Source: Scenedesmus sp. PABB004
Lineage: Eukaryota
DNA: 64,000 nucleotides
Direction of reading: 5' to 3'
Assembly: GCA_014905635.1 (NCBI GenBank)
Contig: JABVCE010000009.1
Location: 930,001-994,000 of the forward strand
The position numbers and the translations under genes are program-made. A model generated the notes under the pieces. The model did not search any database and had not been told where the DNA came from. It worked only from the letters and a program-made list of their open reading frames with translations. Shown here one piece after another: positions 43,904-50,121 of the stretch (the first letter of the stretch is position 1; every line of letters starts with the position of its first letter).

Positions 43904-44703
43904 TCACTTGTCCATCTCGGCCTGGATCTGGTCGAACGACTTTCCCTTGGTTTCAGGCACGTTTGCAGCCACCCACGCGGCGGCGACGAGCGAGCAGGCG
44001 CCGAAAAAGGCATAGACCGCCGACAGACCGTACGCGTTGGCCGCGGCCATGAAGTTCTGCCCGATCGCCACGTTGCACACCCAGTGCGTCACCATCGCCG
44101 CCGACACGGCGTTGCCTGCGCGCGCGCGCACCGCGCGCGCGTGAGCGGGTCGGCGCGCGCGCGCGGTGCGCCGCGCCCGCCCGCGGCCCTGCGCCGCCAG
44201 CCCGCGCCGCGGCGCGCCGCGCGCCGCGCGTCGCCGCCGCCTGGTGCTCGCACCGCGCACGGCCTCCTTGTTGAGCTCCGGCACGATCAGCCCCGACACC
44301 GGCCCCGCGCCGATGGCAAACGACAGGATGTAGGCCAGCGTGCCGCCCAGCGCGATCGTGCCGCTGCGGCGGGCGGCGCGCGGCGCCGCGGCGGCGGGCC
44401 GTCGGCGGCGCCCGCGCGGCGGCGGGCCATCGCGGCGGCGGCGGACGCGGCGCGTGCCTGTAGGGCGCGAGGGCGGGCAGGCCGAAGCCGGCGGCCATGA
44501 GGGCCATGGTGGCGGCCATGCCCAGGTACGAGGCGGTCAGCAGCTGCTTGCGGCCCGCGCCCTCGATGAGCCCCGTCGCGACGAGCGTGCCGGCCACGTT
44601 GGTCGCGCCGACCGCGGCGCTCGCGAGCGCGCCCGACGCGATGCCGGCCTGCGCGCGTCCAGCGCCCGCGGGGCGGGGCGGTCTCAGAACACACACAACA
44701 CCA

Positions 44704-44738
<35 letters not shown>

Positions 44739-46359
44739 TGCGCGTGCGATGCGCGTGCGGCGCGTGCGCTGCCGCGCGCTGCCGCCCGTGTCGCCGCGCC
44801 TGCTTGAACACGCTGCTGCTGAAGTAGACGATGGCGTTGATGCCGCTGAACTGCTGGAACACAAACAGAAGGCAGCCCAGCACCACGCCCTTGCGGTACG
44901 GCGCGGCGAGCAGGTTGGCCCCGCCCGACGCGGCGCCGCCGGCCTTGGCGCCGCCGGCCGGCGCGGCGCCGAGCTGCGCGGCGCCGCCGGCGCCCCAGAG
45001 CTTGGTCGCCGTCGCGAGCGCCTCGTCGCGCTTGCCCTTGCTCGCCAGGTAGGCGGGAGACTCGGGGCAGCCCAGCATGCCTGCGCCCCGCGGCGGCGCG
45101 CGGCGTGCTCGGCGCGGCGCTCGGCGCGCGACGCAGCGGCGTGCCAGGCCGGCAGCGGCCCGCCGCGCGGCGCGTTCCATGCTCGGCGCGCGTCGGCGCG
45201 CGCGCGCACCCAGGAGCAGGATGCCGGCGGGCGCGGCGGCGAGCGTGAACATCGTGCGCCAGTCGGTCACGGGCAGGGCCACGTTGACCAGCAGCGCCGC
45301 GAGGATGCCGAGGCAGATCATGAGCTGGTTCAGGCTGCCCAGCGTGCCGCGCACCGACGTCGGCGACACCTGCGCCGCGCGGCGCGGCGCGGCGCGGCGG
45401 CGGCTCGGCGGGCGCGCGGCGGGCGCCGCTGCCCGCTGCCGCCTGCCCTGGCACCGCCGCTCGCGGCCGGGCGGCGGCGGCGCGTGCGGCGCCGGCTCGC
45501 CTCTGAGATGTAGAGGGGCACGAGCGCGGAGCTGAGGCCGATCGCGACGCCCGCGAGGAAGCGGCCGGCGACCATGGTGTTGAGGTCGGCCGCCGCCGCG
45601 CTGAGCAGCGGGCCGACGAGCATGGGCACCGCGCAGAGCATGAACGAGAGGCGCCGCCCCAGCGCGTCGGCAAAGCCGCCGCCCGTGAGGCTGCCGAGCG
45701 CGGCGCCGGCGAGCGTGCTGCTCACGACCTGCGGCCGGCGCGGCGCGGCGCGGCGCGGTTGGGCCCACGGCGCGCGGCCGCCGCGACGCTGCAGCGCTGC
45801 GGCGGGCGGGCGGGCGGGCGGGCGGCCGCAGCGGCGCGCACCAGGCCGGCGAGCGCCTGGTTGCCGGCGAAGCCGAGCTCGCGCGCGATCGCCTCGAGCG
45901 GCCCGTTGACGACGCCGAGGTGGTACCCAAAGGCAAACGCGCCCATGCACGCCACGCCCACCGCGCCGAGCACGGCGCCCATGTTGGCGCCGGGCGACGC
46001 CGACGACGCGCCCGACGCGCCCGACGCCGCGCGCGGCGGCGCCGGCCCGGCGGCGCGGCGCGGGCGGCCCGCGGCGCGCGCCGGCGCGACGACGGCGGCT
46101 AGCGCGCGGGGAGCGGGCGGGTGCCACGCGGGCGGCGCGGGGGGATGTGGGCGGCAGCACTGCGGCGGCGTGCGCAGCGGCGCTGCGGCAGCGGCGGCAC
46201 GGCGGCATGCCGCCACTCACCGCCGCCGTGGCGATGGCTCGGCGGCGGCGGGACGCGCCCGGACGCCGCGCCGCGAGGCGCCAGGGCCCGGCGGGACGAC
46301 GGCCTGGCGCAGGCGCGCGCCGAGACAGCTGCGAGCGGCTTCATCGCGAGCGCGGCCAT
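43904..46359 (-). CDS. Plastidic glucose transporter (pGlcT-like, MFS sugar porter) with transit peptide
   Basis: AFAFGYHLGVVNGPLE, ADALGRR, VPLYISE|VSPTSVRGTLGSLNQLMICLGI, CPESP, FQQFSGINAIVYFSS, GAGPVSGLIVPEL, HWVCN and VPETKGKS. Confidence 0.93.
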
Positions 46360-46509
46360 TGCGTGGCAGGGCTGAGTGCAAGAGGGCTGTGGGCGGGACG
46401 CGGCGGGCGTGGGCGCACGGGGTGCGTGATGGCGGGGCCCCGCCGGCGCGCCAGCGGCGATGCCGTTGCGCAGGATGGCCGCCGTCGCTGGGAGATGCCT
46501 CCAGGCCGC

Positions 46510-47378
46510 CAGCTAGGCGATCCGCGGCGCGACCTGCACACCAACGCTGCGCCAGACCAGCCGCTCGACGCTCCGATCGCTGCTGTGACGCTGCGGATAG
46601 CCCATGCGCACGCACCGAGCAGGTGTGGCGCGCGCGGGGTCGGGCGGGCCCGTCATACCTCCCTGGACCGCAGCGCGGCTGGCGACCTCCCGCTGCAGGT
46701 CCTTGAGGGGTTCCTTGCGCAGACGCACGGCCGCCTCGCTGGCATCCACGGCGGCGCGCTACTCGGGCACGAGCGTCGCCGCCGCCGGGGCGTGGCGCAA
46801 CGGCCGGGTGCATCATGTGTTGGACAATGCATTCGCATATAGCTTGCTTGCGTGCCGTGCAGAGTGTGCGTGGCGGCTGCGGAAGCACGGGCTGAAGCAG
46901 CGCGCTGCATGCGGCGATTCAGTTGACTGCATACGGCCGGGTCTTTGTGCGCGGGCGCGTCCGGCAGCACGCGCGCCTGCCCGCCGACCTGCCCGCGGTG
47001 GTGCTGGGCATCGGGGACGCCAGCCTGGGCATGGGGGGCTGCATCTCGGGGCCGGGGCCGCCGCGGCAGGCGCTGCTGGCGCTGCTGCGCACGTACTACG
47101 CGCGCCGGCGCGTCGCCGCGGTGCTCATGGACGAGCACCGGACCAGCATCACCTGCTCTGTTTGCGGGGCGCGCGTGGAGAAGCTGCGGGGCATCTATGG
47201 TCTGGTGCAGTGCCCCGGGTGCACGGTCGTCGCGCCGCGCGACGACAACGCGGCGCGCAACATCTGCGCGCTCACGCTGCACGAGTTGCTGCGCGGCGGC
47301 CGCGGCACGGCGGGCGGCGCGCGCCTCGCCGGCGCGTTCCGGCAGGCGGCCGCCGCCGCGGTGGACCCCCCGGCGTGA
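46510..47378 (+). pseudogene. Fanzor (eukaryotic TnpB-like RuvC nuclease) remnant, frameshifted and apparently 5'-truncated
   Basis: Frame 46902-47378: ALHAAIQLT...VVLGIGDASLG...GPGPPRQALLALL...VLMDEHRTSITCSVCG...LVQCPGC...RDDNAARNI (RuvC-II Glu, CxxC..CxxC zinc finger, RuvC-III Asp). An adjacent upstream frame reads VHHVLDN...AWRLRKHGLKQR. A possible degenerate RuvC-I (GDPRRDL) lies at 46516-46536. No introns. Confidence 0.8.
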
Positions 47379-47399
47379 GCGGCGTGTGCGGTGCGCTGC

Positions 47400-47625
47400 G
47401 CTCTCCGTCCTGGGCAGGACGTTAAAAGGCCTCTTGCTGTTGTGTTGTGTTGCCAGGTTAGGTCAGGCGTGTGCGCGTGCGTTTCTCGCCTTGTCACCCG
47501 TTCCGGGTGGCGCAAACCCCTCGCGGGGCACCGACCTGCGGGCCGGTCCCAAACCGTTATGCCTCGCGCCGCTGTGGCCTGTTTCAGGCGGCCGGCGATC
47601 AGAGGATGCCCATGGTCGGTGTTGG
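47400..47625 (+). ncRNA. Candidate structured RNA (putative Fanzor omega-RNA scaffold)
   Basis: Hairpins at 47406-47421, 47465-47491, 47492-47512, 47517-47528 and ~47562-47605, plus a long-range stem 47527-47536/47614-47623, directly 3' of the Fanzor stop. Confidence 0.45.
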
Positions 47626-48013
47626 CGGCGGCGGCGCGCGCGCGCGGCGGTGGCAGCGCCGCGCACGCGCGCCGCGCGCCCGCGGCGCCGGGGCGCCCCC
47701 GGGGCGCCCCGGCAGCCCCCATCCCCCCAGCCGCCGGTGTTGAGACCACCGGCCGGCGCTCCCACGGCGGTAGCGAGGCCGGGGAGCACGCCCACTGCCA
47801 CGAGCTGGGGCGGAGGCACGAGCTGTCGTCGCGGAGTTGCCTGGGCGCCGGGAGCACGGCTGCAGCTGACCCGGCCAACCACCGCGGTGCGGCGGCTCAC
47901 TCTCTCGAAGCTCACGGCCGCCGCGCCCGGCCGCCGCCGCGCCCGCCGCCGCGCCCGCCGCCGCGCGCGGCGCTGCTACCCCTGCCGGCCCCACGCCCGC
48001 GCCCGCTGCGCTG

Positions 48014-48047
<34 letters not shown>

Positions 48048-48725
48048 CCGCCGCCGCCGGCCGCCGCGGCCGCCGCCGCCGCGACGAGCGCGTCGTTGCC
48101 CGCCCCCGGCCGCGTCTTGCCCGCGATGCGCGTAGCGTGCTCGGGGTGGCGGTGCGGCGCTCTCGCGGTGTCGGCGGCGCGATCTCGCTGCGCTGGTGCC
48201 GTGCCGGGCGGGCGAGCGGTCGAGGTGCTTGAGCCCGCGCCCCCAGCTCGTTTGCCGCTCGCCTGCGCGCGCGCTGCTCACGGCCGCGCTGCGATCATCG
48301 CCCCGCCCTCCTCCCGTCCCGCCTCTCCTACCGACCGATCGCGCCCGCGCTGCGAAGGCGCCCGCTCCCGCAGCCAACCGCCGGCCCGCCAGGCGCTCAC
48401 CAGGTGCGCGGGTGGGCGCACGCGACGCGGGAGCGACGCCGGAGGCGCGCGGGCGCGCCAGGGGGCCCGCCGCGCCGGCCGGCAGCAGCGCGCGCGGCAG
48501 GCCCCGGGGCGCGGCGCGAGGGCGGCCCGGGCGCACCCGCCAGCCAAGCGCAGACCGCGCCCGATCGCGGCGCACGGCCGGCGGCGGCGACGCGGCGCGG
48601 CCCGCACGGCGCGCGGCGGCCACTGGCGCTGCCGCGTGCTGCTGCCGCGCGCGGCGGGGGCGGCGCGCCGACGCTGCCCGCGCACGCACGCGCGCAGGCC
48701 AGAACAGCGCGGCGTGCCAGCGGCC

Positions 48726-49659
48726 ATGGCGACCGAGAAGAAGGCCCCCGTGTTCAAGGCGCGGCCGCCGCTGCCGCATGCGCGCGCGGCAGCGAGGGCT
48801 GCCGTCGCTGCGAGGGCCGCAGGGCCGCGGCCGCGACCGGGCGGGCGCGCCGCCGCCGTGCCGCGCAGAACGTGGCCGACCTGCGGCCGGGCACGCACAA
48901 CCACAACCTCAAGGTCAAGGTGCGCAAAGCCCCGGCCCAGCGGCGGGCGCGGCGCAGCGCGCAGGGGCCGCCGGCGGCCCACCGCGCCGCCGCTCCGCCC
49001 CATGCACGCACACGCCCACGCACTCACACCCGCACGCGCCACCGGCGGCCGCAGGTGATGAAGGCGCAGATCGTGGTCGACCGCCCCCGCGGGCCCAAGG
49101 GCACGCCGCTGCGCGTGGCCGAGTGCATCGTCGGCGACGCGAGCGGCTGCATCGTGTTCACCGCGCGCAACGAGCAGGGTGCGCGCACCGGCAGCGCACC
49201 GCCGCGCCGCGCCGCACCACGCAGCCGCGCCGGCCGCGCGGGCCTCTCGCCGCGGCGCCGCCGCCGCCGCCGCGGCGCCGCCGGCCTCACGCCCGCGCGC
49301 GCGCGCCGCGCCGCGCCGCGGCGCACACCCCACACAGTCGAGCTCGCGACCGTGGGCGCGTACGTGACGCTGCGCAACGCCAAGATCGATATGTACCGCG
49401 GCTCGATGCGGCTAGCGGTGGACCAGTGGGGCAAGGTGGAGGCGCTCGAGGGCGCGTCGTTCGAGCCCAAGGTGCGCTGCGGCGGCGGCAGCGGCGGCGG
49501 CGGCGCGCGGCGCGCGGGCGCAGGGAGGCGGGGCGCCGCGCGCGGGGAGGGCGCCGCCCGAGCAGCGCCCGCCCGCCGCGCGCGCAGGCGGACAACAACC
49601 TGTCCCTGGTGGAGTACGAGCTGGTCACGGTGCCGGGCGAGACGCCCGCGGCCTCGTAG
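48726..49659 (+). CDS. Small OB-fold nucleic-acid-binding protein (At4g28440-like), 5 exons
   Basis: MATEKKAPVFK|NVADLRPGTHNHNLKVK|V...RVAECIVGDASGCIVFTARNEQ|VELATVGAYVTLRNAKIDMYRGSMRLAVDQWGKVE...|ADNNLSLVEYELV. Confidence 0.9.
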
Positions 49660-50121
49660 GCCACCCCAGCCGCGCAGGCGCCGGCGTGGGCGCCGGCGGG
49701 GTGCCGGCGTGGGCGCCGGCGGGGCGGGAGCGGCCCCGCGGTCGGCGGCCGGCGTGGCGGCGCAGCAGCAGCTCCTCCTCGTGGTTGGTCTGGCTGCGGG
49801 CAGGGAGAGCTGAGCGCCCTCTCTGATCTGTCGTGCGCCTTGCATGCACTGGTTGCCGAGGGGGCCCTGGGCTCGCGCAGCGCCGCGTGTGGGGCCCGCA
49901 GTTGGCGCGGCGGCGGGCCCTACAGGGCGTCCAGCGAGCGCGCGCGCATCGGGCGCTTGTTACCCTCCCGACCCGACACAAGCCTGGGAGCGGCGTCGGC
50001 CGCACCAGCCCCGCGCAGCCCGCCGCGCCGCGCCGCCGCGCCAGCCAGCCGCGCCAGCGACCTGCGCGCGCCGGCCAGGCCCCCGCGCTCGTGCGCCCGT
50101 TCGCGCGCGGCGCTCGCTCGC

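Follow-up and report, generated by a model that had tools for sequence, protein, structure and literature searches.

A partial Fanzor gene, probably truncated recently at its 5' end, between two housekeeping genes of Scenedesmus sp. PABB004

The DNA under study is a stretch of 64,000 nucleotides (nt) from contig JABVCE010000009.1 of Scenedesmus sp. PABB004, referred to below at its full length as the window. On its forward strand, positions 46760-47378 would correspond to a partial Fanzor gene that was recently truncated at its 5' end and is inactive as a nuclease. On the basis of sequence comparisons, this reading is given a probability of about 0.7. The family membership of the fragment, its missing N-terminal half, a frameshift polymorphism and the breakpoint upstream of it are established here. 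To our knowledge, Fanzors are the only eukaryotic RNA-guided DNA nucleases described so far, and they are under development as compact genome editors.

The main open frame belongs to the Fanzor/TnpB family

The stop-to-stop open reading frame (ORF) at 46896..47378 (+) contains the motifs VVLGIGD, GPGPP, DEHRTSITCSVCG, CPGC and RDDNAARNI. They were found, on re-reading, exactly as transcribed in the first-pass annotation of this DNA, which had proposed a decayed Fanzor copy at this place. The main open frame proper (46902..47378, +; 158 codons and a TGA) encodes the zinc ribbon and the rest of the C-terminal half of a RuvC nuclease of the Fanzor/TnpB type, as indicated by Pfam, by sequence matches in the PDB, by an AlphaFold2 (AF2) model and by Foldseek. 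The length of the ORF alone carries no evidential weight, since at the 78.7% GC of the 64-kb window an open frame of 160 codons has a probability of 0.19 by chance, and 264 stop-to-stop ORFs of at least 160 codons are present in the window.

First, the 160-residue ORF was compared with domain profiles. PF07282 (Cas12f1-like_TNB) matched residues 66-123 with an E-value of 1.4e-10 and 41.6 bits, the gathering cutoff being 26.3. The NCBIfam TnpB models matched ~50 C-terminal residues at about 1e-5, far under their full-length cutoffs, because the query is only a fragment. A HMMER search of 1.84 billion representatives returned 53 relatives at E<=1e-3, the best of them at 8.5e-10 with 43% identity and none at E<=1e-10. 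When 12 of these relatives were scanned, PF07282 was reported in all of them, and above its cutoff in 10. The long relatives measure 556-663 amino acids (aa), and two of them have basic N-terminal stretches resembling, by eye, nuclear localization signals. They share a GxDPG RuvC-I strand, a 'WRLRK..Q..H' helix, an 'IGLGDAS' strand and the motifs 'DEhRTSxxCxxC' and 'RDxNAxRNI'. A word-index search for longer relatives gave none at E<=1e-3, which is weak evidence for this tool. Related loci were detected six times in metagenome contigs (37-55% identity over short stretches) and once in viral contigs (39%), with no close copy in either search, and no second copy of the fragment was found within the 64-kb window.

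Next, solved structures were considered. The closest one to the ORF sequence was the mimivirus Fanzor2 L79 (9B0L; E 5.8e-4), followed by LaTranC, Cas12m and TnpB. With the family profile, the PDB matches were ApmFanzor2 (1.8e-11), the Guillardia Fanzor1 (3.7e-9, profile positions 143-390), the Parasitella Fanzor1 (3.5e-8), ISDra2 TnpB (8e-6) and SpuFz1 (1.9e-5). The AF2 model of the ORF reached a predicted local distance difference test (pLDDT) score of 81.1 and a predicted template modelling (pTM) score of 0.72. It gave five Foldseek matches at E<=0.001, namely four Cas12f structures and ApmFanzor2; the Fanzor1, LaTranC and TnpB structures begin at rank 6 (PpFz 6, SpuFz 19, ISDra2 TnpB 23, GtFz 32). 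The fold predicted for the ORF is that of the C-terminal RuvC half of Cas12f/TnpB/Fanzor.

The TnpB/Fanzor RuvC and zinc-finger signature recognized at first pass was thus confirmed by a PF07282 match above cutoff and by the match of the fold. The narrower label 'Fanzor1-like' is plausible in view of the relatives (556-663 aa, basic N-termini), but the profile scores do not separate Fanzor1 from Fanzor2.

A Fanzor-type catalytic site and a complete zinc ribbon

In Fanzors and in a subset of TnpB proteins, Gly or Pro occupies the position of the canonical RuvC-II Glu, and an alternative essential Glu is located ~45 residues downstream; in the mimivirus Fanzor this residue is E467, and the E467A substitution abolishes cleavage (PMC10530073). 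A rearranged site of this type, with a Gly in the RuvC-II strand and a relocated Glu, is kept in the fragment. The RuvC-II beta strand VVLGIGD lies at 46998..47018 (+) and is formed by residues 33-39 of the model (E33-39); its Gly stands at the canonical catalytic Glu position and is invariant in the family. The relocated Glu, that of DEHRTS, is encoded at 47133..47135 (+), 40-42 residues past this strand, and is aligned to E467 of mimivirus L79/ApmFanzor in accordance with the family profile. Further on, the RuvC-III motif RDDNAARNI (47238..47264, +; catalytic Asp at 47241-47243) is aligned to RDENAAKNI of L79, and the family shows no variation at its R, D, N, A and N.

Between them, the zinc ribbon (TNB) with its CxxC...CxxC arrangement occupies 47154..47222 (+) and is covered by PF07282. 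All four Cys are invariant in alignment A1; in alignment A2 (54 sequences), the second to the fourth are invariant and the first is nearly so (at least 90%). Altogether, the 13 invariant columns of A1 are all kept in the window: Gly, Pro, Glu, Ser, four Cys and R-D-N-A-N. The survival of the four Cys and of both downstream catalytic residues had been claimed before. For the Cys this is correct as it stands, and for the catalytic residues it is true of a Fanzor-type site, in which the Glu faces E467 and the RuvC-III Asp is retained. At the end of the frame, the tail '...AFRQA...' lines up with the natural ends of the relatives, and the TGA at 47376 is therefore the family's own stop.

The comparison with TnpB/Fanzor profiles suggested at first pass was also used to examine whether the frame could have another source, i.e. 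an unrelated zinc-ribbon protein or a contaminating bacterial TnpB. Zinc-ribbon and L37ae families did match, only weakly (E 0.04-0.4), beside the significant match of PF07282, and the NCBIfam TnpB models cover only about 50 residues, far below their cutoffs. Such an origin is extremely improbable. Besides the ribbon, the match to the family takes in RuvC-III, the relocated Glu, the RuvC-II strand and the helix in front of it, and the predicted structure resembles RuvC halves. Moreover, the relatives share the Fanzor-typical Gly and relocated Glu, and the neighbours are spliced algal genes with the same GC content at third codon positions (GC3).

The N-terminal half is missing

The Fanzor frame extends upstream of the main ORF at 46760..46900 (+), in the frame of the 46601 ORF, and ends with ...AFAYSLLACRAECAWRLRKHGLKQ. 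This part corresponds to the helix that precedes the RuvC-II strand in the relatives. When a profile of the helix was run against 917 six-frame pieces of the window, the top match was 46850-46906 (11.8 bits, E 0.01; runner-up 7.4 bits), and hhalign placed LLACRAECAWRLRKHGLKQ on the family over 19 columns with an E-value of 0.038. The upstream block with WRLRKHGLKQR described in the first-pass annotation is real by both measures. The GC content at the first, second and third codon positions (GC1/2/3) of 46760-46900 is 0.64/0.55/0.79. The homologous stretch begins at 46760 according to contig identity or at about 46844 according to the profile; a start at 46510, as assumed earlier, is not upheld.

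Within this block, positions 46808-46862 are low in GC and use A/T-ending codons (cat cat gtg ttg gac aat gca ttc gca tat agc ttg ctt ...), unlike the sequence further on with its GC3 of 0.97. An intron of 54 nt (GT...AG) at 46808-46861 was considered by eye; it was dropped, the encoded AFAYSLLACRAEC being aligned with the relatives.

Further upstream, the letters GDPRRDL, read before as a possible RuvC-I relic, are indeed present at 46516-46540. They are outside the top 15 of 669 matches of the RuvC-I profile and gave only 4 columns at E 0.57 with hhalign, i.e. no better than chance, and were rejected. The RuvC-I catalytic Asp (GxDPG strand) was not found, the best match of the profile over the six frames of the window being one of 5.2 bits located elsewhere. 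The second-best match in the window, which is not significant (4.7 bits, E 1.9), falls at 46382-46423 (+), in the 5' region of the transporter gene near the fragment.

The search was extended with the relatives themselves. In tblastn with composition correction (an uncorrected run was swamped by Ala/Arg/Gly/Pro-rich noise and was discarded), all 53 relatives gave nothing colinear upstream of 46896; the single match, of 14 aa, belongs to a zinc-ribbon insert of one relative (P0003). Similarly, the N-terminal parts (WED/REC) of 10 relatives produced one match in the whole 64 kb, at E 0.84. The earlier remark that no N-terminal half can be recognized agrees with these searches. Since only ~400 nt lie between 46760 and the start of the upstream transporter gene, there is no room for the missing part, which amounts to ~300-450 residues.

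In the absence of the RuvC-I Asp and of WED/REC, the locus has no complete RuvC active site and would encode no RNA-guided nuclease as it stands. With one third of the catalytic site missing, the fragment is most probably a defunct remnant of very recent date.

Environmental contigs define a breakpoint and a frameshift polymorphism

Independent DNA came from the Logan contigs of four metagenome runs (X1, X5, X7 and X8), of freshwater or other origin and from four studies, which were aligned to 45500-49900. The upstream block and the main ORF are in different frames, as had been noted at ~46901-46904. The site was located in a short (GC)n run at 46899..46902 (+), where the window is 2 bases shorter than each independent contig covering it. 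By frame arithmetic, two bases added behind 46899 join the WRLRKHGLKQ frame to ALHAAIQL. A 'GC' was found behind 46899 in all the covering contigs, at depths of 10.5/10.5 in X1, 29/29 in X5 and 4.9/4.9 in X7, X8 being without coverage there. While the frames do differ in the window, the frameshift is thus not a secure sign of decay, as 3 of 3 covering runs carry the extra GC. It may be private to the sequenced strain, by a slip in the (GC)n run, or be an assembly error.

In the assembly, the Fanzor-derived sequence is bounded on its 5' side by a breakpoint at 46759..46760 (no strand assigned), at which contigs from both sides cease to match. On the left, record 4 of X1 (46701-46759) and record 25 of X8 (46630-46759) continue rightwards into unlike sequence; on the right, record 5 of X1 (46760-47272) and record 9 of X5 (46759-46939) continue leftwards into unlike sequence. 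Among the contigs listed for X1, X5, X7 and X8, none bridges 46759/46760, and the unlike continuations of the left contigs past 46759 were not located anywhere in 45500-49900. Because the contigs from both sides stop at this point, the window's copy appears to be cut there. Record 5 of X1 differs from the window by 1 letter in 513, plus the GC, and 30 loose X5 letters to the left of 46760 are open in the fragment's frame upon hand translation. As the right-hand contigs extend to the left, and the X5 letters do so in an open frame, longer ORF copies exist in those populations.

In X5, two deletion variants were also observed. In the main variant of this run (depth 31.1), 9 other letters stand in place of 102 nt that include the RuvC-III motif (47238-47341), and another one (depth 17.4) lacks 56 nt (46936-46993). 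These variants suggest several decaying copies in that population. The word depth of X5 is ~30 in the element and 2-5 in the flanks, depth here not being copy number; together with the variants, it hints at a multi-copy family.

On these data, the Fanzor gene at this locus could also be longer and perhaps even intact, in which case long-read assembly errors, or a deletion private to the culture, would account for the truncation at 46759/60 and for the frameshift. The extra GC, present in all covering contigs of three independent runs, restores the frame, and the missing bases lie within a (GC)n run, a typical site of indel errors. In addition, X1 has two pieces that are near-identical to the window, with 0-1 mismatches on the left and 1 in 513 on the right, and neither continues as the window does; the assembly consists of 77 contigs with an N50 of 1.3 Mb (PMC12571836). 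However, with ~400 nt up to the transporter start, a large segment would have to be missing, and the loss of kilobases inside a unique spacer is rare in long-read assemblies. Furthermore, the unlike continuations of the left contigs are absent from 45500-49900, and the whole pattern is also compatible with other copies at other loci, the X5 variants (56 nt lost; 102 nt replaced by 9) being such as a multi-copy family would contain. We therefore hold a longer gene at this position to be unlikely.

Codon periodicity, age and proposed origin of the fragment

For the stretch 47031-47375, the GC1/2/3 values are 0.75/0.61/0.97, and the sequence past the stop is flat (0.69/0.71/0.69). Host exons have a GC3 of 0.94-1.0, so that the host-like codon usage reported earlier was found again. 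The host-like GC3 and full periodicity indicate that the family has long been translated in this lineage, and that the fragment is too young to have lost its periodicity. In comparison with X5, three codons of the fragment differ silently and two with a change of residue.

The following course of events is proposed. A transposon-borne Fanzor gene, coding for a eukaryotic TnpB homolog that acts as an RNA-guided RuvC endonuclease, would have left a partial copy in the spacer between the transporter gene and an OB-fold gene. This copy keeps the natural C-terminus together with the RuvC-III Asp, the zinc ribbon and the relocated Glu, and in front of these a RuvC-II strand of the Gly type and its preceding helix. 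Everything upstream (WED/REC and the RuvC-I Asp) would have been lost, by deletion or by incomplete insertion, and the copy in the assembly carries the 2-base frameshift in addition. The truncation would be recent in view of the near-identity to environmental copies that read further upstream and of the retained coding periodicity and host-like GC3. The Fanzor family itself would have resided in the host long enough to acquire its codon usage, and probably remained active up to recent times. The truncation by either route, its recency and the lack of function are what we infer from the data presented above.

Several observations weigh against this course of events. First, all invariant residues are intact, and no decay is seen apart from the truncation and the 2-base slip. 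Second, the frameshift may be an assembly error, and the 46759/60 junction could be one too. Third, the differences to X1 amount to 1 in 513 in the coding part versus 8 in 270 in the 3' flank (Fisher p 0.0012), which is compatible with selection on the coding part. For X7 (p 0.10) and X5 (p 0.44) the contrast does not reach significance, and selection explains the pattern no better than recent copying from active elements would.

The 3' flank and the search for a guide RNA

In Fanzors, the guide RNA derives from the 3' end of the gene and from its untranslated region (UTR) (PMC10530073). In the environmental contigs, the fragment is accompanied by a 3' flank at 47379..47650 (+), as seen in record 6 of X1 (47367-47636), record 21 of X7 (47500-47650) and record 26 of X8 (47295-47550). 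This flank, which is without codon periodicity, is the position where a Fanzor guide RNA would be expected. RNA folding of 47300-47660 compared with shuffled sequences gave no signal (z 0.09 on the + strand, -0.80 on the - strand). Rfam returned nothing at gathering score, the match to CcsR1 having 17.9 bits versus a required 65.3, and Fanzor RNAs may be missing from Rfam. Inverted repeats or transposon ends were searched in 46300-48300, and only GC-rich low-complexity repeats were obtained. No transposase domain was detected in the flanking frames tested, in line with the initial description of the copy as one without a transposase.

These results bear on a second function that the locus might have: the protein part would be dead, and the 3' end would supply a Fanzor RNA (fRNA/omegaRNA) in trans to full-length Fanzors encoded elsewhere. 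Apart from the usual location of the guide RNA, two facts point in this direction, i.e. the 134 ghost loci of S. punctatus that have no ORF and keep a working omegaRNA (PMC10432273), and the company of the flank, up to about 47650, in X1, X7 and X8. Nevertheless, the folding of the flank equals that of shuffled sequences (z 0.09), neither inverted repeats nor ends stand out from the GC-rich low complexity, no Rfam family was reached (with the reserve just made), and the flank has diverged more than the ORF in X1. A role as guide-RNA donor appears quite unlikely, and the preferred reading remains that of an inactive partial gene.

One deposited gene model covers both the fragment and the OB-fold gene

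The fragment is part of a public protein, KAF8064625.1 ('hypothetical protein HT031_003426 [Scenedesmus sp. PABB004]'), which has 271 aa and contains both PF07282 and PF21473. Upon exact mapping, the first exon of this deposited model (P0054) was placed at 47031..47375 (+); it starts at an internal Met and ends at a GTGAGC donor overlapping the stop codon. From the Met at 47031, the path of the model crosses this donor, includes a micro-exon of 30 nt (48375-48404) and then enters the OB-fold gene. Its first two introns have 999 and 294 nt, and the remaining four 110-159 nt.

The OB-fold gene was compared with its own relatives, of which 1,584 were obtained at E<=1e-10 in a search limited to 75-240 aa, in which longer fused forms could not appear. 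All of the 120 orthologs listed carry PF21473 only, and a conserved TNB-OB fusion was not found among these 120 proteins of 75-240 aa. The nine closest orthologs listed (74-85% identity, some of them complete ORFs from transcriptomes) have 136-146 aa. Given the 999- and 294-nt introns, as against 110-159 nt for the others, and the presence of the OB domain alone in 120 of 120 listed orthologs, the fusion is doubtful, and KAF8064625.1 is most likely, from these sequence comparisons, a prediction artefact.

If the model were right, the fragment would have been recruited by the host as a 5' exon of the OB-fold gene; a stand-alone zinc-ribbon protein starting at Met 47031 is a variant of the same idea. 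The in-frame junction of KAF8064625.1 through the GTGAGC donor at the stop codon would allow the former, and a GC3 of 0.97 like that of host exons, the retention of all conserved residues and the better conservation of the ORF than of the flank in X1 agree with either. In contrast, TNB is absent from the 120 listed OB orthologs (75-240 aa searched), the OB-fold gene possesses a separate Met that lines up with complete ORFs from transcriptomes, and the fusion needs a 999-nt intron and a 30-nt micro-exon where the adjacent introns have 110-159 nt. Moreover, the ORF ends at the natural C-terminus of the family, environmental copies extend upstream as a longer Fanzor ORF, and the main X5 variant has no RuvC-III. 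Recruitment by the host is thus judged very improbable.

Comparison with known systems

The fragment belongs to the same superfamily as Fanzor1 (SpuFz1, 8GKH; GtFz1, 9CER; PpFz, 9CF0; C. reinhardtii Fanzor1c), with which it shares the Gly at RuvC-II, the relocated Glu and RDxNAxRNI. It resembles Fanzor1 also in its residence in a eukaryotic nuclear genome, and its relatives, of 556-663 aa, are near the published Fanzor mean of 620 aa. Unlike Fanzor1, it keeps only the last ~205 codons (47 at 46760-46900 and 158 at 46902-47375) and is without RuvC-I, WED, REC, or detectable ends, target-site duplication, transposase or guide RNA. In addition, the best sequence match of its family among solved structures is a Fanzor2 and not a Fanzor1. 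With this protein, the mimivirus L79 (9B0L), the fragment has in common the position of the Glu opposite E467. L79 is part of a viral IS607-type element with TnpA and inverted repeats, whereas the fragment resides in an algal host and neither of these was found. The relocation of the catalytic Glu, by about 45 residues downstream, is also described for TnpB2 (e.g. TvTnpB). However, TnpB2 is prokaryotic, has about 400 aa and is carried on IS605 with TnpA, and the relatives of the fragment are longer and the fragment lies in a spliced algal genome.

Incomplete Fanzor derivatives left in a genome are known from S. punctatus, in which Saito et al. (2023) describe 42 loci with full-length (19) or partial Fz genes in addition to the 134 ghost loci (PMC10432273). 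In these ghost loci the two inverted repeats and a functional omegaRNA are preserved; for the fragment, neither repeats nor an RNA signal were found. Green algae are known, sporadically, as Fanzor hosts, with six Fanzor1c copies on Helitron-2 elements and an fRNA in the 3' UTR reported for C. reinhardtii. In Auxenochlorella, a small and repeat-poor green algal genome, a Fanzor element is the most abundant repeat (preprint of Craig et al., PMC12633428); the likeness is one of description only. No report of Fanzors in Scenedesmaceae was found in the published material available, and the supplements of two Fanzor surveys (one PDF being unreadable) had no entry for Scenedesmus or PABB004.

The genome of Scenedesmus sp. 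PABB004, the organism named for KAF8064625.1, is described in PMC12571836 as 39.8 Mb in 77 contigs (N50 1.3 Mb), with 78.5% GC and 1.31% repeats. For a Fanzor family native to an alga of ~79% GC, both targeting and folding would take place in an uncommon sequence context. The data might even be taken together to mean that a living Fanzor family, with host codon usage, is present in this alga, whose genome ranks among the most GC-rich (78.5%) and repeat-poor (1.3%) known for algae, that near-identical, longer, frame-intact copies circulate in freshwater populations sampled by at least three studies, and that the truncated copy was kept as a guide-RNA donor or as an exon of the OB protein; this combination appears unlikely to us. 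The locus itself adds little, since partial Fanzor copies have already been described in fungi and Fanzors occur sporadically in green algae. Its practical value is to flag a chimeric public gene model (KAF8064625.1) that needs correction, as well as a probable 2-base assembly error or strain polymorphism, and to offer a lead to full-length copies in the species of Scenedesmus sp. PABB004.

Neighbouring genes and minor observations in the spacer

The genes of the window are spliced. The 5' neighbour of the fragment is a sugar transporter gene at 43953..46359 (-), defined from the ORF list and PF00083 (Sugar_tr, E 3.1e-23) and standing head to head with it. Its protein would start with MAALAMKPLAAV at ~46359, a transit-peptide-like sequence; this start codon is a reading of the ORF and not an annotation. 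The 3' neighbour, at 48726..49659 (+), is an Ssb-like OB-fold gene (At4g28440-like; PF21473, E 1.7e-27) of five coding exons with its own Met (MATEKKAPVFK). The spacer between the two genes measures 2.3 kb and contains the fragment, whose placement between two housekeeping genes had been recognized at first pass and is substantiated by these Pfam matches. The flanking genes are spliced and have plant or algal orthologs, and the GC3 of the fragment equals that of host exons, all of which places it in a eukaryotic genome.

Directly to the left of the breakpoint, an island of 130 nt (46630-46759) shows a coding-type periodicity (GC1/2/3 = 0.86/0.58/0.86). On the - strand, a candidate exon at 46656-46758 reads RAAVDASEAAVRLRKEPLKDLQREVASRAAVQG between a 'tag|' acceptor and a '|gtatga' donor. 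The island gave no match in Pfam, with the Fanzor profile or in the ESM Atlas. Contigs of X1 and X8 match it almost perfectly and continue into unlike sequence on both sides. The island could represent an exon missed by the annotation or part of some other coding sequence. Finally, positions 47920-48080, in the spacer on the 5' side of the OB-fold gene, form a GC-rich low-complexity CCG/GCC array which is matched by many unrelated metagenome contigs, and which contains the direct-repeat family D1 together with many imperfect inverted pairs.

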